UHGV virus genome: UHGV-0372619
Reading direction: 5' to 3' (one strand)
Length of the DNA: 10,101 bases
Source: a virus
The notes below the pieces were generated by a model. That model saw only the letters and a list, made by a program, of their open reading frames with translations. It did not search any database and was not told the origin of the DNA. Shown piece after piece: positions 2,812-10,101 of the stretch. The position numbers were made by a program, and so were the translations under genes. The stretch's first letter is position 1. The number at the start of each line of letters is the position of its first letter.

Positions 2812-5800
2812 ATGGGTAAAGGTAGCAGTAAGGGGCATACCCCGCGCGAAGCGAAGGACAACCTGAAGTCCACGCAGCTGCTGAGTGTGATCGATGCCAT
2901 CAGCGAAGGGCCGGTTGAAGGTCCGGTGGATGGATTAAAAAGCGTGCTGCTGAACAGTACGCCGGTGCTGGACAGTGAGGGGAATACCAATATCTCCGGC
3001 GTCACGGTGGTGTTCCGGGCAGGTGAGCAGGAGCAGACACCGCCTGAGGGCTTTGAATCCTCCGGCTCCGAGACGGTGCTGGGTACGGAAGTGAAGTACG
3101 ACACGCCGATTACCCGGACCATCACGTCTGCAAACATCGACCGTCTGCGCTTTACCTTCGGTGTGCAGGCACTGGTGGAAACCACCTCAAAGGGGGACCG
3201 GAATCCGTCGGAAGTCCGCCTGCTGGTTCAGATACAACGTAACGGTGGCTGGGTGACGGAAAAAGACATCACCATTAAGGGCAAAACCACGTCGCAGTAT
3301 CTGGCCTCGGTGGTGGTGGATAACCTGCCGCCGCGCCCGTTTAATATCCGGATGCGCAGGATGACGCCGGACAGCACCACAGACCAGCTGCAGAACAAAA
3401 CGCTCTGGTCGTCATACACCGAAATCATCGATGTGAAACAGTGCTACCCGAACACGGTACTGGTCGGCGTGCAGGTGGACTCGGAGCAGTTCGGCAGCCA
3501 GCAGGTGAGCCGTAATTATCATCTGCGCGGGCGTATTCTGCAGGTGCCGTCGAACTATAACCCGCAGACGCGGCAATACAGCGGTATCTGGGACGGAACG
3601 TTTAAGCCAGCATACAGCAATAACATGGCCTGGTGTCTGTGGGATATGCTGACCCATCCGCGCTACGGCATGGGGAAACGTCTTGGTGCGGCGGATGTGG
3701 ATAAATGGGCGCTGTATGTCATCGGCCAGTACTGCGACCAGTCGGTGCCGGACGGCTTTGGCGGCACGGAGCCGCGCATCACCTGTAATGCCTGGCTGAC
3801 CACGCAGCGCAAGGCGTGGGATGTGCTCAGTGATTTCTGCTCGGCGATGCGCTGTATGCCGGTATGGAACGGGCAGACGCTGACGTTCGTGCAGGACCGA
3901 CCATCAGATAAGGTGTGGACCTATAACCGCAGTAATGTGGTGATGCCGGATGATGGCGCGCCGTTCCGCTACAGCTTCAGCGCCCTGAAGGACCGCCATA
4001 ATGCCGTTGAGGTGAACTGGATTGACCCGAACAACGGCTGGGAGACGGCGACAGAGCTTGTGGAGGATACGCAGGCCATTGCCCGTTACGGTCGTAACGT
4101 CACGAAGATGGATGCTTTTGGCTGTACCAGCCGGGGGCAGGCACACCGCGCCGGGCTGTGGCTGATTAAAACAGAACTGCTGGAAACGCAGACCGTGGAC
4201 TTCAGCGTGGGCGCAGAAGGGCTTCGCCATGTGCCGGGCGATGTCATTGAAATCTGTGATGATGACTATGCCGGTATCAGCATCGGCGGGCGCGTGCTGG
4301 CGGTAAACAGCCAGACCCGGACGCTGACGCTCGACCGTGAAATCACGCTGCCATCCTCCGGTACCACGCTGATAAGCCTGGTTGACGGAAGTGGTAATCC
4401 GGTCAGCGTGGAGGTTCAGTCCGTCACCGACGGACTTAAGGTGAAAGTGAACCGGGTTCCTGACGGCGTTGCAGAATACAGTGTGTGGGGGCTGAAGTTG
4501 CCGACGTTGCGTCAGCGCCTGTTCCGCTGTGTGAGTATCCGTGATAACGATGACGGCACGTATGCCATCACCGCCGTGCAGCATGTACCGGAAAAAGAAG
4601 CCATCGTGGATAACGGGGCGCACTTTGACGGCGGCCAGAGCGGCACGGTGAATGGTGTCACGCCGCCAGCGGTGCAGCACCTGACCGCCGAAGTCACCGC
4701 AGACAGCGGGGAATATCAGGTGCTGGCGCGCTGGGACACGCCGAAGGTGGTGAAGGGCGTGAGCTTCCTGCTCCGTCTGACCGTAACAGCGGATGACGGC
4801 AGTGAGCGGCTGGTCAGCACGGCCCGGACGACGGAAACCACATACCGCTTCACGCAACTGGCGCTGGGAAACTACAGGCTGACAGTCCGGGCGGCAAATG
4901 CCTGGGGGCAGCAGGGCGATCCGGCATCGGTATCGTTCCGGATTGCCGCACCGGCAGCACCGTCGCGGATTGAGCTGACGCCGGGCTATTTTCAGATAAC
5001 CGCAACGCCGCATCTTGCCGTTTATGATCCGACGGTACAGTTTGAGTTCTGGTTCTCGGAAAAGCGGATTGCGGATATCAGGCAGGTTGAAACCACAGCC
5101 CGCTATCTTGGCACGGCGCTGTACTGGATAGCCGCCAGTATCAATATCAAACCGGGCCATGATTATTATTTTTATATCCGTAGTGTGAACACTGTTGGCA
5201 AATCGGCATTTGTGGAGGCTGTCGGTCGGGCGAGCGATGATGCGGAAGGTTACCTGGATTTTTTCAAAGGCAAGATAACCGAATCCCATCTCGGCAAGGA
5301 GCTGCTGGAAAAAGTCGAGCTGACGGAGGATAACGCCAGCAGACTGGAGGAGTTTTCGAAAGAGTGGAAGGACGCCAACGATAAGTGGAATGCCATGTGG
5401 GCTGTCAAAATTGAGCAGACCAAAGACGGCAAACATTATGTCGCGGGTATTGGCCTCAGCATGGAGGACACGGAGGAAGGCAAACTGAGTCAGTTTCTGG
5501 TTGCCGCTAACCGTATCGCATTTATTGACCCGGCAAACGGGAATGAAACGCCGATGTTTGTGGCGCAGGGCAATCAGATATTCATGAACGACGTGTTCCT
5601 GAAGCGCCTGACGGCTCCCACCATTACCAGTGGTGGCAGTCCTCCGGTATTTTCCCTGACATCAGACGGAAAGCTGACCGCTAAAAATGCGGATATCAGT
5701 GGCAGTGTGAATGCGAACGCCGGGACGCTCAACAATGTCACGGTAAATGAAAACTGTACGATTAAGGGCATGCTGGAGGCGACTCAGGTCAGAGGTGACT

Positions 5801-6225
5801 TCGTTAAAGCTGTATCCAAATCATTTCCGAAACAGGCTGGTACGTGGGGTAACACGGAAACACCAAACGGGACGGTTACAGTCACCATCAGCGATGATCA
5901 TAACTTTGACCGTCAAATCATTATTCCGCCCATTATCTTTAACGGAATAGCGTATAGCGATCCGGGAAGTGGTAATAACCCGGGAGGTACAAGATACACG
6001 GGTTATGGTTTTGAAGTTCGCAAAAACGGTGTATTAATCGCATCCAGAGAAACTAAAGGGGCCATTCCCGGTAGCTACAGTGCGGTTATTGATATGCCGA
6101 GTGGCAGGGGAAGCGTCACTCTGGAGTTTAAGGTTTTCCATAAAGGCAATCAGTGGGCAGGTAATATCACCGACTGTACGGTGATTGTGACCAAAAAAGC
6201 CGCTTCCGGCATCAGTATTCGTTGA
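2812..6225 (+). CDS. J: Tail tip host-specificity protein J (central tail fibre), 1137 aa, with divergent C-terminal receptor-binding domain
   Basis: ORF 2812..6225 preceded by a GAGGA Shine-Dalgarno. The N-terminal [34 protein letters not shown]... and most of the length match lambda gpJ (1132 aa) as I recall it. The last ~150 aa (from about ...[34 protein letters not shown]... to ...[10 protein letters not shown]) diverge from the lambda C-terminus I remember. Confidence 0.92.
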
Positions 6226-6246
6226 AATTGTTATAACCCATATAAG

Positions 6247-6270
6247 GGCACCAGAAATGGTGCCTTTTTT
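6247..6270 (+). terminator. Putative rho-independent terminator between J and lom
   Basis: GGCACC-AGAAAT-GGTGCC stem-loop followed by TTTTTT, immediately after the J stop and upstream of the lom Shine-Dalgarno (GAGAGG). Confidence 0.5.
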
Positions 6271-6294
6271 ATTGCAGAAAAGCGAGAGGTAATT

Positions 6295-6894
6295 ATGCGT
6301 AAACTTTATGCCGCCATTTTGTCCGCAGCCATTTGTCTGGCCGTATCCGGTGCGCCTGCATGGGCATCTGAACATCAGTCCACGCTGAGCGCGGGGTATC
6401 TTCATGCCTCGACGAACGTTCCCGGCAGCGATGATCTTAACGGGATTAACGTGAAATACCGTTATGAGTTTACGGATACGCTGGGGCTGGTGACGTCATT
6501 CAGCTATGCAGGAGACAAGAATCGCCAGCTTACCCGTTACAGCGATACCCGCTGGCATGAAGATTCCGTGCGTAACCGCTGGTTCAGCGTGATGGTGGGG
6601 CCGTCTGTGCGCGTGAATGAATGGTTCAGCGCGTATGCGATGGCGGGTATGGCTTACAGCCGTGTGTCGACTTTCTCCGGAGATTATCTCCGCGTAACTG
6701 ACAACAAGGGGAAAACGCACGACGTGCTGACCGGAAGTGATGACGGTCGCCACAGCAACACGTCTCTGGCGTGGGGAGCTGGCGTGCAGTTTAACCCGAC
6801 CGAATCCGTGGCCATTGATATTGCTTATGAAGGCTCCGGCAGTGGCGACTGGCGCACTGACGGTTTCATCGTGGGTGTCGGTTATAAATTCTGA
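6295..6894 (+). CDS. lom: Outer-membrane beta-barrel protein Lom (Ail/Lom/PagC family), 199 aa
   Basis: ORF 6295..6894. Signal peptide [24 protein letters not shown], followed by alternating aromatic/hydrophobic beta-strand patterns and a C-terminal ...[10 protein letters not shown] ending in Phe, typical of 8-stranded outer-membrane barrels. Same position (between J and stf) and high similarity to lambda Lom as I recall it. Confidence 0.88.
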
Positions 6895-6920
6895 TTAGCC
6901 AGGTAACACAGTGTTATGAC

Positions 6921-6947
6921 AGCCCGCCGGTTCAGGCGGGCTTTTTT
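6921..6947 (+). terminator. Putative rho-independent terminator downstream of lom
   Basis: AGCCCGCC-GGTTCA-GGCGGGCT stem-loop followed by TTTTTT, 27 nt after the lom stop. Confidence 0.6.
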
Positions 6948-6958
6948 GTGGGGGGAAT

Positions 6959-9900
6959 ATGGCAGTAAAGATTTCAGGTGTACTGAAAGACGGCACAGGA
7001 AAACCGGTACAGAACTGCACAATCCAGCTGAAAGCAAAACGTAACAGCACCACGGTGGTGGTGAACACGCTGGCCTCAGAAAATCCGGATGAAGCCGGGC
7101 GTTACAGCATGGACGTTGAGTACGGTCAGTACAGCGTTATTCTGTTGGTGGAGGGATTCCCGCCGTCACATGCCGGGACCATCACCGTGTATGAAGATTC
7201 TCAACCCGGTACGCTGAATGATTTTCTCGGTGCCATGACGGAGGATGATGCCCGTCCGGAGGCATTGCGACGTTTTGAACTGATGGTGGAAGAGGTGGCG
7301 CGTAACGCGTCCGCAGTGGCACAGAACACGGCAGCCGCGAAGAAGTCAGCCGGCGATGCCGGCACATCTGCCCGTGAGGCGGCAACCCATGCGACTGATG
7401 CTGCAGGCTCAGCACGCGCAGCCAGCACGTCAGCCGGACAGGCCGCTTCGTCGGCTCAGTCAGCGTCTTCCAGCGCAGGAACGGCATCAACAAAGGCCAC
7501 TGAAGCGGAAAAAAGTGCTGCCGCTGCAGAGTCCTCAAAAAGCGCGGCAGCTACCAGTGCCAGTGCCGCGAAAACGTCAGAAACGAATGCTGCAGCGTCA
7601 CAACAATCAGCAGCCACTTCTGCATCCACCGCGACTACGAAAGCGTCAGAAGCTGCCACCTCAGCCCGGGATGCGTCGGCTTCAAAAGAGGCGGCAAAAT
7701 CATCAGAAACGAACGCATCCTCGAGCGCCAGCAGCGCAGCTTCCTCGGCAACGGCGGCAGCAAATTCCGCGAAGGCGGCAAAAACGTCCGAGACGAACGC
7801 CAGGTCTTCTGAGACGGCAGCGGGACAGAGCGCCTCAGCTGCGGCAGGCTCAAAAACAGCGGCTGCGTCGTCTGCCAGTGCCGCGTCAACAAGTGCCGGG
7901 CAGGCCTCAGCCAGTGCCATCGCCGCCGGAAAATCGGCAGAAAGCGCCGCATCATCCGCTTCAACAGCCACAACGAAGGCTGGCGAAGCCACTGAACAGG
8001 CCAGCGCAGCAGCGAGGTCAGCTTCCGCAGCGAAGACATCCGAAACGAACGCGAAAGCGTCGGAAACCAGCGCAGAATCCTCAAAAACGGCTGCCGCATC
8101 GTCCGCCAGTTCGGCGGCGTCATCGGCCTCATCGGCGTCTGCTTCAAAAGATGAGGCGACCAGACAGGCGTCAGCAGCGAAGGGCAGCGCCACGACGGCA
8201 TCCACGAAGGCAACAGAGGCTGCTGGCAGTGCGACGGCGGCAGCACAGAGCAAAAGTACGGCAGAATCCGCAGCAACGCGCGCTGAGACAGCGGCAAAAC
8301 GGGCAGAGGATATTGCATCCGCCGTGGCGCTTGAGGATGCGAGCACGACGAAAAAGGGGATAGTCCAGCTCAGTAGTGCAACCAACAGCACATCTGAAAC
8401 GCTTGCCGCGACACCGAAGGCAGTTAAAGCAGCGAATGACAATGCGAATGGCAGGGTACCATCTAACCGAAAAGTTAACGGGAAAGCACTGACTGCGGAT
8501 ATAACATTAACACCGAAAGATATTGGCACTTTAAATTCAGTAACGATCTCTTTCTCTGGCGGGGCAGGGTGGTTCAAACTGGCAACGGTTACCATGCCAC
8601 AAGCGAGTTCCATCGTTTACATCGCATTGATTGGTGGCGCTGGTTACAACGTCGGCTCCCCACAGCAGGCAGGCATTTCAGAACTGGTTCTACGAGCAGG
8701 CAATGGAAACCCCAAAGGGATTACCGGAGCTTTGTGGAAGCGTACAGCCGTCGGATTAACGAATTTCGCCTGGATCAACACATCCGGCGATACATATGAT
8801 ATTTACGTTGAGATTGGCAATTATGCGACGAGTGTAAATATCCATTGGGATTGTACTACAAATGCGTCAGTTTCTATTTATACCTCGCCAACATATTCAG
8901 CGAGTAAGCCTTCCAGCGTTACCGATGGTGTTGTTTATACGATGTATAGCTCACATCAGAAACCTACACCATCAGATATTGGAGCGCTGCCAACGACTGG
9001 AGGGACTATTTCAGGTCCGTTGTCTGTTACTGATGGGATCACCGGGGCACTGAAGGGGAACGCCGATACCGCGACGAAACTTGCGGCAGCCCCAAAAATT
9101 AACGGTGTTAAGTTTGATGGCTCGGCGGATATTAACCTCACGCCGGAAAATATTGGTGCATTTGCCCGACGTTCGACGGGAGCTTATGCGGATTCGGATG
9201 GAGCCGTTCCCTGGAATGCCGAATCAGGCGCTTACAATGTCACCCGCTCTGGCGACAGCTATATTCTGGTTAACTTCTATACCGGAGTCGGAAGTTGCCG
9301 GACCTTGCAGATGAAGGCGCATTACAGAAATGGTGGTCTGTTCTACCGTTCTTCAAGAGACGGTTATGGTTTTGAGGAAGACTGGGCAGAAGTTTATACC
9401 TCGAAAAATCTTCCACCAGAAAGCTACCCAGTAGGCGCACCAATCCCGTGGCCATCAGATACCGTTCCGTCTGGTTATGCCCTGATGCAGGGGCAGACTT
9501 TTGACAAATCTGCCTACCCAAAACTTGCAGCCGCTTATCCGTCAGGCGTGATCCCTGATATGCGTGGCTGGACGATTAAGGGCAAACCTGCCAGTGGTCG
9601 AGCCGTATTATCTCAGGAACAGGACGGCATTAAATCGCACACCCACAGCGCCAGCGCATCCAGTACGGATTTGGGGACGAAAAACACATCGTCGTTTGAT
9701 TACGGAACCAAATCCACGAATAACACCGGGGCGCATACCCATAGTATTAGCGGGACTGCAAATAGTGCCGGTGCGCACCAACACAAGAGTTCCGGTGCAT
9801 TTGGTGGCACGAACACGAGCATTTTCCCTAATGGTTATACCGCGATTTCAAATCTAAGCGCGGGGATTATGAGCACAACAAGCGGTAGTGGCCAGACTCG

Positions 9901-10101
9901 TAATGCAGGGAAGACATCATCAGATGGTGCTCATACCCACTCGCTGTCCGGCACTGCTGCAAGCGCAGGCGCACATGCACATACTGTCGGTATTGGTGCT
10001 CATACGCACTCCGTTGCGATTGGCTCACATGGACACACCATCACCGTTAACGCTGCTGGTAACGCGGAAAACACCGTCAAAAACATCGCATTTAACTATA
10101 T
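6959..10101 (+). CDS. stf: Side tail fibre protein Stf, 3'-truncated by the window end (at least 1047 codons); mosaic of lambda-like N-terminus, Ala/Ser-rich repeats, inserted central module and lambda/T4 gp37-like His-rich C-terminal region
   Basis: My own translation from ATG 6959 stays open to the window end, which is presumably why the ORF track lacks it (no in-window stop). N-terminal [26 protein letters not shown]... and C-terminal ...[71 protein letters not shown]...[13 protein letters not shown]...[26 protein letters not shown] match lambda Stf as I recall it. By that recollection the stop should lie only a few codons beyond the window. Confidence 0.85.
7330..8300 (+). repeat. Degenerate tandem Ala/Ser/Thr-rich repeats inside stf, with recurring A-K-T/S-S-E-T-N-A units
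   Basis: Recurring nucleotide motif GC[GA]AA[AG]AC[GA]TC[AC]GA[AG]AC[GA]AA[CT]GC at about 7568, 7694, 7788 and 8039, encoding AKTSETNA / AKSSETNA. The surrounding sequence is almost entirely A/S/T/E/K. This also creates the spurious Ala-rich reverse ORF and Arg-rich +1 ORF over the same span. Confidence 0.6.

Follow-up and report, generated by a model that had tools for sequence, protein, structure and literature searches.

The Ala/Ser-rich tract of a lambda-type side tail fibre gene is an array of 49 heptads, probably a coiled-coil shaft of quantised and mostly conserved length

About 1 kb of the stf gene in UHGV virus genome UHGV-0372619 encodes little besides Ala, Ser, Thr, Lys and Glu, which raises the question of what such a sequence builds in a side tail fibre and whether its length is free to vary. 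The initial annotation had placed this Ala/Ser-rich tract in stf, within the fibre shaft, and the placement is borne out below. The term "window" denotes the whole stretch of 10,101 nt that was analysed.

The lambda-type order J–lom–stf is found in the window, with J at 2812-6225 (eight GpJ Pfam domains), lom at 6295-6894 (Ail_Lom) and stf from 6959, where the translation begins MAVKISGV...; tfa would fall past the window end. Judged by the 1052-aa protein in the closest complete genome found, stf is about five codons short of complete here. Pfam models match Stf at aa 1-134 (PF08400, phage_tail_N; E 5.4e-72, 240.5 bits against a cut-off of 26.6) and at aa 826-873 (Collar), the latter in a distal part that also contains H-x-H repeats; no Pfam model was found over aa 135-825. 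Comparison with the PDB by phmmer aligned residues 1-94 with the "Tail fiber protein" of 9E7M/9MGH (9E7M chain Ta; E 1e-52). In the near-identical locus L129, a 1052-aa "prophage tail fiber N-terminal domain-containing protein" is followed by a tail fibre assembly gene. The features of the gene that are used in the following are:

6959..10101, + strand: stf (side tail fibre) CDS, identified from its translation, PF08400 and Collar; runs off the window end
6959..7240 (aa 1-94), + strand: collar (attachment) domain, from phmmer against the PDB
7295..8323 (aa 113-455), + strand: heptad array of 49 uninterrupted A-x-x-S-A-x-x repeats, from layout, periodicity and Viterbi tracing
7568..7591 (aa 204-211), + strand: AKTSETNA copy 1
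7694..7717 (aa 246-253), + strand: AKSSETNA copy 2, the left end of natural 84-nt and 336-nt deletions
7778..7801 (aa 274-281), + strand: AKTSETNA copy 3, the right end of the 84-nt deletion
8030..8053 (aa 358-365), + strand: AKTSETNA copy 4, the right end of the 336-nt deletion
8324..8440, + strand: conserved post-heptad junction, kept after the tract in nearly all homologues

The order of collar, linker and heptad array (from aa 113) agrees with the lambda domain map, and by alignment the junction at 8324..8440 appears to correspond to where the proximal domain of lambda ends, ahead of the hinge.

The composition of the tract is as biased as first noted: its 343 residues include 130 Ala, 82 Ser, 40 Thr, 22 Lys and 21 Glu (86% A/S/T/K/E), no Pro and only 12 Gly, as suits a helix, and its limits of 7295-8323 are slightly wider than the original 7330-8300. 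Position 1 of the heptad is Ala or Val in 49/49 cases, position 4 is Ser in 37/49 and position 5 is Ala in 35/49, and Viterbi register tracing revealed no register shift across the 49 heptads. Protein self-identity at lag 7 amounts to 0.44, as compared to 0.223 ± 0.021 in shuffled controls (z = 10.6), and lag 7 and its multiples alone stand out in a periodicity scan. The pattern of conservation follows the same grid. Among 121 distinct tracts, the entropy is 0.042, 0.032 and 0.037 at positions 1, 4 and 5 and 0.16-0.29 at positions 2, 3, 6 and 7; the former are approximately 5-fold less variable. The core residues are small (Ala, Ser) at 4/3 spacing and not the Leu/Ile/Val of canonical coiled coils, so that the usual expectations on stability and oligomer state may not hold.

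AKTSETN is one variant of this heptad. The four AK[T/S]SETNA copies are spaced 126, 84 and 252 nt apart, which fits the recurrence at about 90-250 nt described earlier; the irregularity ascribed to it does not persist, as the copies sit on a strict 21-nt lattice. The heptad code accounts for the A/S/T/K/E composition and the GC-richness, and likewise for the recurrence of AKTSETN and for the alternative frames free of stops. The GC content is 0.58-0.64, against about 0.50-0.53 in the flanks, in agreement with the earlier description as GC-rich. The heptad periodicity of an alpha-helical coiled coil, as the organising principle of the region, was absent from the initial annotation.

The open frames that accompany the tract raise a separate question. 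Three of them are long and cover both strands, as had been predicted together with their possible miscalling by annotation pipelines:

7456..8613, − strand: spurious antisense ORF of 385 aa, in the frame of lambda orf206b (NP_040603) and phi458 Orf45
7635..8318, − strand: spurious antisense ORF of 227 aa, 95.6% identical to the ev099 "hypothetical protein" VUF53544.1
7356..8363, + strand: spurious alternative-frame ORF of 335 aa, R/Q/P-rich

Miscalls of this kind are indeed on deposit: antisense ORFs over the tract are entered as genes in lambda (orf206b), ev099 and phi458, and the N-terminal half of stf is lost in these records as a consequence. Their length (227-385 aa) and their deposition as CDSs could be taken to mean that one of the frames is a real overlapping gene, which would help to explain the odd composition. 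To this we assign next to no probability. The antisense ORF does not keep its limits: it measures 385 aa in the window, 206 aa in lambda and 245 aa in phi458, and ev099 has ORFs of 67 and 227 aa that lie in two different frames. A stop truncates the long antisense ORF in 43/69 distinct 49-heptad DNAs, with stops gained and lost at scattered positions, and 22/69 relatives carry stops in the frame of the 335-aa ORF, at 16 scattered positions. Moreover, the heptad constraint on the sense frame explains the composition completely, and PGAP calls no such overlapping ORFs in the RefSeq genomes examined. We reject a real antisense gene of the orf206b type in view of the varying limits and the scattered stops; the 385-aa ORF is a by-product of GCN/TCN/ACN codon usage.

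With regard to structure, an AF2 monomer model places helix at 99-251, 263-371 and 394-461 (mean pLDDT 54.8, pTM 0.23); calculated from a shallow 18-sequence alignment, it bends the helix back on itself. The low confidence of the model, together with the Ala/Ser/Thr low complexity and the lack of a Pfam model in the region, would suit a disordered low-complexity linker or a beta-structured or collagen-like shaft. Such an assignment is highly improbable. Disorder gives no reason for keeping one register over 343 residues, and it explains neither the five-fold better conservation at positions 1, 4 and 5 nor the whole-heptad indels discussed below. The scan of lag self-identity revealed no G-X-Y or beta-helix periodicity in the tract, and the lambda homologue is seen as a rigidly rotating rod whose start is a resolved trimeric helical bundle (PMC12617516).

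The comparison with lambda can be taken further. Ur-lambda Stf is divided into residues 1-91, 92-101, 102-393 (coiled coil) and 394-422 (hinge), where 102-393 form the proximal coiled coil of three chains, resolved at the start of the trimeric bundle; high-resolution density is limited to this first part (PMC12617516). The collar domain of gpStfN (the 9E7M/9MGH chain) binds gpV/gpM, and Stf trimers form four fibres per virion at the gpV/gpM junction (PMC12617516). Stf of the window resembles lambda Stf in its position after J and lom, in its collar (about 93% aa identity), in its linker and in the A-x-x-S-A-x-x code. At the DNA level, lambda stf aligns with 86% nt identity and one 315-nt gap, which is a 105-aa difference: lambda has 34 heptads versus 49 here (+15). 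The distal receptor-binding half differs as well, and only 32% of the query is covered. StfR of the Rac prophage in K-12 is closer, with a 49-heptad tract of equal length and 94.5% nt identity (MG1655 stfR); this protein and the "prophage tail fiber N-terminal domain-containing protein" family deviate only in their distal domains and total length (1120 aa in the StfR-like protein of L003, 1052 aa in MIN11). Of the genomes found, that of E. coli O89m:H9 MIN11 is closest, with an identity of 100% in 7150-8450 and of 98.6% in 5546-10101. A match is present in 4857/5426 complete E. coli genomes, 3586 of which cover at least 80% of the query. The tract is an already known and very common component of E. 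coli prophages.

Apart from the 94-aa collar, the PDB sequence search with Stf returned just a weak match to DT57C LtfA (residues 35-169, E 0.046), which shares AKxSExN heptads with the tract. In DT57C LtfA and T5 pb1, Ala/Ser/Lys/Glu heptads with AKxSExN-type units likewise stand right after the attachment segment, and in LtfA a trimeric alpha-helix bundle, radial from the tail tip, has been seen experimentally (PMC10713586), with the three-helix coiled coil resolved from T40 onwards (PDB 8HQZ; PMC10713586). The differences are a lasso in the LtfC ring in place of the PF08400 collar, another phage family, and a resolved part that comprises the helix start alone. By analogy to lambda cryo-EM/ET and DT57C LtfA, the geometry of the tract is presumably trimeric and helical. 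Considering periodicity, conservation and homology together, the tract is very probably the proximal alpha-helical, three-stranded coiled-coil rod of a lambda-type side tail fibre (Stf/StfR).

The same heptads are found beyond the lambdoid phages. Tail fibres of Escherichia phages of about 108 kb, e.g. Cyrano (CYRAN_21, which bears the annotation of a P1 S homologue), and representatives with a Peptidase_S74 chaperone C-terminus share the tract and the part behind it (7512-9045 of the window) at 90% nt identity, and the representatives P0126 and P0155 contain 304-392 aa of these heptads. Unlike Stf, these fibres have another N-terminal anchoring domain (the tract starts from aa 151) and other C-terminal modules. 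As it stands behind a different anchor there, the tract is an exchangeable module and not specific to lambdoid phages. Heptad-repeat fibrous proteins whose length varies via indels inside the coiled coil are also represented by T4 fibritin (gpwac) and the Ala-rich MSP3 of Plasmodium vivax. Both are unrelated in sequence to the tract; in fibritin the cores are canonical and hydrophobic and loops are inserted between the segments, in contrast to the tract, which forms one continuous array around Ala and Ser.

Whether the shaft changes its length readily depends in part on the repeats in the DNA. High nucleotide self-similarity had been proposed for the tract and was not found. TRF, applied to the whole window at a minimum score of 30, reported no array in the tract beyond two tiny ones of 22-23 nt, so that the suggested tandem-repeat check came out negative despite the heptad periodicity of the protein. 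DNA identity is 0.46 at lag 21 and 0.37 at the remaining multiples of 3. No exact repeat is longer than 13 nt, where codon-shuffled controls give 12.2 ± 1.4 nt:

7558..7570, + strand: longest exact direct repeat, TGCCAGTGCCGCG, with its partner at 7873-7885, 315 nt (15 heptads) apart

Judged by TRF, lag 21 and longest repeat, the tract does not consist of the head-to-tail units of high nucleotide identity that define a VNTR. The short repeats present are in phase: every pair of exact repeats of at least 11 nt is separated by a multiple of 21, and all spacings in one repeat family (231, 126, 84, 63, 189, 21 and 21 nt) are multiples of 21 as well. Nine exact pairs of at least 11 nt occur in the tract and none in equal-length coding DNA of J or distal stf. 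The repeat is detectable only in the protein or via the phase of these spacings.

Heptad numbers were compared among homologues by means of a heptad Viterbi tracer with looser anchors, since anchoring on fixed motifs passed over homologues whose junction motifs vary (27 and 35 sequences remained unanchored). The number is exactly 49 in 128/151 distinct anchored homologues, and the 49-heptad tract is kept although their distal halves differ greatly (total lengths 652-1252 aa). Close relatives, at 85% identity or more, have 49, 47, 45, 42, 35, 34 or 33 heptads; 31, 19 and 17 occur where the distal part differs, and representatives at 50% identity span roughly 12 to 56. Giant proteins with multiple heptad segments also exist. 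Relative to 49, the shorter variants lack 2, 4, 7, 14, 15 or 16 heptads. No variant of ±1 heptad was observed among the 151 distinct homologues; the copy-number polymorphism of a VNTR, typically by one unit up or down, is not what the tract displays. Whole-heptad classes make up 6/11 of the non-reference length classes (binomial P = 0.002), and every length class with more than one distinct sequence is in heptad register. Out-of-register indels (+4, −3, −18, −29 and −30 aa) occur in five homologues, each a singleton; if real, they would mean that strict register is not absolutely required.

An even-step sample of complete E. coli genomes gave a single full-coverage place with a net deletion (H83, −294 nt or −14 heptads), next to 35 places with equal query and record spans and seven that are longer by insertion. 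The E. coli class that is longer by 261 to 264 nt was considered as a possible longer tract and rejected: in both members checked (L126, L128) the insertion is located downstream and the tract has 49 heptads.

Four deletion junctions were read in DNA, and all of them fall on direct repeats in the form of 8-13-nt in-phase microhomologies. AK[T/S]SETN copies bound two of the four. An 84-nt (4-heptad) deletion runs from copy 2 to copy 3 of AK[T/S]SETNA in L124/P0106, and a 336-nt (16-heptad) deletion from copy 2 to copy 4 in L085, P0114, P0116, P0117 and P0120. The position of the TGCCAGTGCCGCG pair agrees with a 105-aa deletion in P0115 and with a complex 14-heptad deletion in L127.

These data bear on the reading of the tract as a hypervariable, contingency-like locus, prone to recombination and slippage, that frequently generates fibre-length variation. 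The seven length classes in close relatives, the direct repeats at all four junctions and the excess of exact repeat pairs over J and distal stf speak in its favour. Stepwise slippage, in turn, predicts ±1-heptad variants, and none was seen; TRF detects no array, identity at lag 21 is only 0.46, the longest repeat is at the codon-shuffle level, 49 heptads persist next to very different distal halves, and a single net deletion was found among the full-coverage places of the E. coli sample. On balance we regard frequent variation as unlikely. From the earlier proposal, recombination between short repeats, partly AK[T/S]SETN copies, is retained as the probable route, and slippage by single units is not supported. 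The suggested comparison of copy number did bring out differences among relatives (49 to 33 heptads), although within a family in which 49 prevails. The shaft comes in discrete lengths that are for the most part conserved; it changes only now and then, and nearly always by entire heptads.

For the coiled-coil rod, the following picture can be drawn. Three Stf chains, each anchored by its collar (aa 1-94) and a short linker, would wind together over 49 heptads around a core stripe of small residues, namely Ala (heptad position 1), Ser (position 4) and Ala (position 5); in an alternative register, Ala would occupy both a and d, and Ser g. At about 0.15 nm each, 343 residues would add up to a stiff rod of ~51 nm, of which the 34 heptads of Ur-lambda fall short by some 15-16 nm. 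The rod would keep the hinge and the distal receptor-binding part clear of the tail tip. Length evolves slowly, and we infer that it does so by rare deletions whose ends lie in short direct repeats of 8-13 nt. The 21-nt period of the DNA would keep such deletions in frame and in heptad register automatically. Whole modules are also exchanged through the tract.

More tentatively, the Ala-Ser-Ala array might represent a distinct class of trimeric coiled coil with a small-residue core (an "alanine/serine zipper"), serving as a length-selected spacer and a recombination-safe joint. We rate this as a speculative possibility, rather doubtful at present. Pointers to it are the 49 heptads (about 51 nm) kept against very different distal domains, and the 21-nt period, by which any crossover or deletion between microhomologies is in frame and in register. 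If true, receptor-binding modules could move among lambdoid, about 108-kb Cyrano-like and T5-like phages, and shaft lengths would fall into discrete classes, perhaps adjusted to how deep the surface layer of the host is. No specific description of the heptad code in tail fibres, or of variation in its length, came up in a literature search.

For annotation, the tract is best treated as one coiled-coil shaft within stf, and ORFs on the opposite strand or in other frames are to be dropped. For engineering, where chimeric Stf is already employed on lambda-derived particles (PMC11338833), the heptad lattice, the in-register deletion series (49 down to 33) and the module junctions mark register-safe sites for shortening, lengthening or fusion. 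For the biology of these phages, the analysis adds extra detail rather than surprise: the tract is an ordinary, known feature of prophages.

The window is a lambda-type tail module, and the long reading frame starting at 6959 is stf, the side tail fibre gene.

Genes of the tail module
In the window, with J and lom: tail-tip genes
2812-6225: J, eight GpJ Pfam domains
6295-6894: lom, Ail_Lom domain
6959 to window end, (+): stf by translation, 1047 codons, reading frame running beyond the window

Pfam assigns residues 1-134 of Stf to PF08400 (Prophage tail fibre N-terminal, E 5.4e-72) and places a Collar domain at residues 826-873. The closest complete genome found, E. coli O89m:H9 MIN11, matches 7150-8450 at 100% identity and 5546-10101 at 98.6%; its stf encodes a protein of 1052 aa, with a tail fibre assembly gene behind it. 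Further 3′ in MIN11 (L129:11583-13601), the prophage end holds a pin-like recombinase gene with a frameshift, together with a "TIR domain-containing anti-phage reverse transcriptase", adjoined by a DinI-like gene. The distal fibre of the window carries seven H-x-H motifs (9638-10036, (+); Stf residues 894-1026), i.e. SHTHS, three copies of GAHTHS, GAHQHK, GAHAHT and GSHGHT, and a weak Pfam Phage_fiber match falls within this region (residues 921-934). These motifs are reminiscent of the His repeats that bind metal in T4 gp37-type fibre tips.

The Ala/Ser-rich tract noted in the initial annotation is present at Stf residues 113-455 (7295-8323), where A (130), S (82), T (40), K (22) and E (21) account for 86% of 343 residues and the GC content is 0.58-0.64, compared with about 0.50-0.53 in the flanks. 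Laid out in rows of seven, the tract consists of 49 unbroken heptads of the form A-x-x-S-A-x-x, the register of which is constant from residue 113 to 455. Position 1 is Ala in 47 of the 49 heptads and Val in two, position 4 is Ser in 37, and position 5 is Ala in 35, the remainder being mostly Lys or Glu. Protein self-identity at lag 7 is 0.44 vs. 0.223 ± 0.021 in shuffles (z = 10.6), and amounts to ~0.4 at lags 14 to 42 and ~0.2 at other lags; a seven-state Viterbi tracer returned a single segment (112-457) with zero shifts. The AKTSETNA unit, previously described as irregularly spaced, occurs at 7568, 7778 and 8030, with AKSSETNA at 7694, giving spacings of 126, 84 and 252 nt. Those of the main DNA repeat family (231, 126, 84, 63, 189, 21, 21) and of all exact repeats of at least 11 nt in the tract are likewise multiples of 21 nt. 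As every spacing falls on this 49-heptad, 21-nt lattice, AKTSETN is simply one recurring heptad variant in a fixed register.

The tract is the proximal coiled-coil domain of Stf/StfR, as described for Ur-lambda. Judged from sequence, a fixed-register array in which small apolar residues recur at 3/4 spacing, Pro is absent and Gly is scarce reads as an alpha-helical coiled-coil signature. The heptads can be assigned to a register in two ways. In one, Ala occupies a and e with Ser at d; in the equivalent other, the Ala of position 5 is a, that of position 1 is d and Ser is g, which would give an alanine-zipper-like core. Among 121 distinct 49-heptad homologues (85-100% identical), mean entropy is 0.03-0.04 at positions 1, 4 and 5 vs. 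0.16-0.29 at positions 2, 3, 6 and 7, a pattern that a buried stripe would show. Among PDB chains, the "Tail fiber protein" of 9E7M/9MGH matches Stf over residues 1-94 (E 1e-52). The paper on that entry (Yu et al., PMC12617516) assigns residues 102-393 of Ur-lambda Stf to a three-chain proximal coiled coil; the start of the trimeric bundle was resolved by cryo-EM and the rod moves as a rigid body in cryo-ET. Lambda stf is 86% identical to the window at the nucleotide level with one 315-nt gap in the alignment, and its array comprises 34 heptads rather than 49. A weak match to the tract (E 0.046) was also obtained for residues 35-169 of DT57C LtfA, which has the same AKxSExN-type heptads and forms a three-helix coiled coil resolved from T40 onwards (PMC10713586). 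The AF2 monomer, a low-confidence model (pLDDT 54.8) in which the helix is folded back on itself, places helix over 99-251, 263-371 and 394-461 and lends weak support to the coiled-coil reading. With a rise of about 0.15 nm per residue, the tract of 343 residues would correspond to a rod of about 51 nm, some 15-16 nm longer than that of the 34-heptad lambda array.

Shaft length had been suggested to vary between related phages, and several heptad-number classes were indeed found. Tract length was taken as the distance between alignment-free flanking anchors in 116 Stf loci (one-genome-per-species and IMG/VR scans with collar domain), 120 close protein homologues and six further loci.

Length classes of the tract (distinct sequences)
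Reference class, change 0 (49 heptads): 128
Whole-heptad classes, -14, -28, -49, -98, -105 and -112 aa: 18 in all
Out-of-register classes, +4, -3, -18, -29 and -30 aa: 1 each

Six of the 11 non-reference classes are multiples of seven (binomial P = 0.002), and all classes seen more than once are in register. The tract was found in 4857 of 5426 E. coli complete genomes, with at least 80% of the query covered in 3586 of them. Among full-coverage rows of an even-step sample of these genomes, query and record spans are equal in 35, including K-12 Rac stfR, and one (H83) is shorter by 294 nt, i.e. 14 heptads. Seven rows are longer by 261-264 nt; in the two that were checked, the extra sequence lies outside the tract and 49 heptads are retained. 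Arrays of 34, 31, 19 or 17 heptads occur where the distal part differs. A search of 50%-identity representatives (1.84 billion) gave 886 clusters with a match to the tract at E ≤ 1e-3, the arrays of which range from about 83 to 392 residues. Shaft length is thus quantised, and one class strongly dominates among close relatives despite varied distal halves (total length 652-1252 aa).

High nucleotide self-similarity, as previously proposed, was not observed. TRF found no array in the tract beyond two tiny ones of 22-23 nt, lag-21 identity is 0.46 vs. 0.37 at other multiples of three, and the longest exact repeat (13 nt) does not exceed that of codon-shuffled controls (12.2 ± 1.4). Nine exact repeat pairs of at least 11 nt are present, each of them in phase, compared with none in stretches of J or distal stf of the same length. 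Natural deletions use these in-phase exact repeats.

Deletion junctions in the tract (window positions; L, gene loci; P, protein homologues)
7706 / 8042: 336 nt, 16 heptads, in L085 (P0114, P0116, P0117 and P0120 at protein level); microhomology GAAACGAACGC, AKSSETN copy 2 with AKTSETN copy 4
7689 / 7773: 84 nt, 4 heptads, in L124 (P0106); microhomology AGGCGGCAAAA, copy 2 with copy 3 of AK[T/S]SETN
7946-8092: 147 nt, 7 heptads, in L125 (P0111); microhomology GCCGCATC, between two AASSAS heptads
7558 / 7873: 14 heptads net in L127 (DNA), 15 heptads in P0115 (by position, protein level); microhomology TGCCAGTGCCGCG

The junctions support the earlier proposal that the repeated units mediate rearrangement. 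Since no variant of plus or minus one heptad was found among the homologues surveyed, rare microhomology-mediated deletion is favoured over stepwise slippage. The L127 junction holds a tandemly duplicated AASTSAG heptad. This 35-heptad stf (E. coli EC21Z-048, L127:2358-3527) is flagged by PGAP as an incomplete pseudogene; translated from the PGAP start it is an uninterrupted 949-aa reading frame.

The prediction that the tract generates long spurious reading frames on both strands, prone to miscalling, was borne out.

Long additional reading frames across the tract
7356-8363, (+): alternative frame
7456-8613, (-): antisense
7635-8318, (-): antisense

Sense codons of the tract are mostly GCN, TCN, ACN, AAA and GAA, so that one other sense frame is stop-free and two antisense frames have 1-2 stops. 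Lambda orf206b (NP_040603), antisense within orf-401, was deposited as a gene; the record of phage ev099 has two antisense "hypothetical proteins" and no annotation for the N-terminal half of stf, a pattern repeated in phage phi458. BLASTP links these antisense frames to those of the window. Across 69 distinct 49-heptad DNAs, stops in these frames lie at scattered positions; selection thus does not maintain them as open. In the RefSeq genomes looked at, stf is correctly annotated by PGAP. A 57-aa GTG reading frame (6895-7068, (-)) lies antisense to the spacer between lom and stf and to the initial 110 nt of stf. It is a "hypothetical protein" in ev099, phi458 and, by PGAP, E. coli EC21Z-048 (91-98% identical), and is probably spurious as well. 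Separately, lambda PaPa sequence (frameshifted orf-401, 34 heptads) appears as low-coverage ~48.5-kb contigs or fragments (L005-L022 and others) in assemblies of Pseudomonas, Shewanella, Leeuwenhoekiella, Oceanobacillus, Kitasatospora, Bradyrhizobium and other genera, which looks like lambda DNA contamination of public assemblies.

The tract also marks a boundary between modules. In some E. coli loci, the match to the query is confined to the first 651 nt. Cyrano-like phages (about 108 kb) have 7512-9045 in common with the window at 90% nucleotide identity and differ in the N-terminus. In Cyrano itself (OV696614, 108 kb), the corresponding tail fibre CYRAN_21 (L130:2957-6982) carries the annotation of a P1 S homologue, which is evidence for movement of the heptad tract, with the region that follows it, between unrelated phage types. 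On a 3.8-kb contig of a "Clostridiales" MAG (L009:2528-3793), a 94% identical Stf collar domain occurs with 17 heptads, directly followed by a collagen-like G-X-Y run (GPPGPKGEQGPAGPQGPKGDKGERGDTGP), a coiled-coil shaft spliced to another kind of fibrous repeat. Separate Ala/Ser heptad segments, 6-15 per protein and each about 30-300 aa long, are found in giant proteins of 2,500-6,200 aa (P0146, P0147, P0150, P0151, P0154, P0171 and P0189), in several cases with non-heptad spacers of roughly 170-190 aa; a Pfam scan of P0146 gave no match.

In summary, the initial observation is confirmed and sharpened, and its interpretation partly supported. The feature is ordinary and already known as the Ur-lambda proximal coiled-coil domain, and most E. 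coli genomes contain an annotated copy of the gene. In the searchable literature, we found no statement of the explicit A-x-x-S-A-x-x code, the unbroken register through all 49 heptads, the predominance of that heptad number or the in-phase microhomology junctions of shorter classes. These four points are incremental, yet of use in annotation and in the engineering of chimeric Stf (PMC11338833). Rather speculatively, and with a likelihood we rate as low, the small-residue heptad array might represent a length-selected, recombination-safe joint common to phage families.
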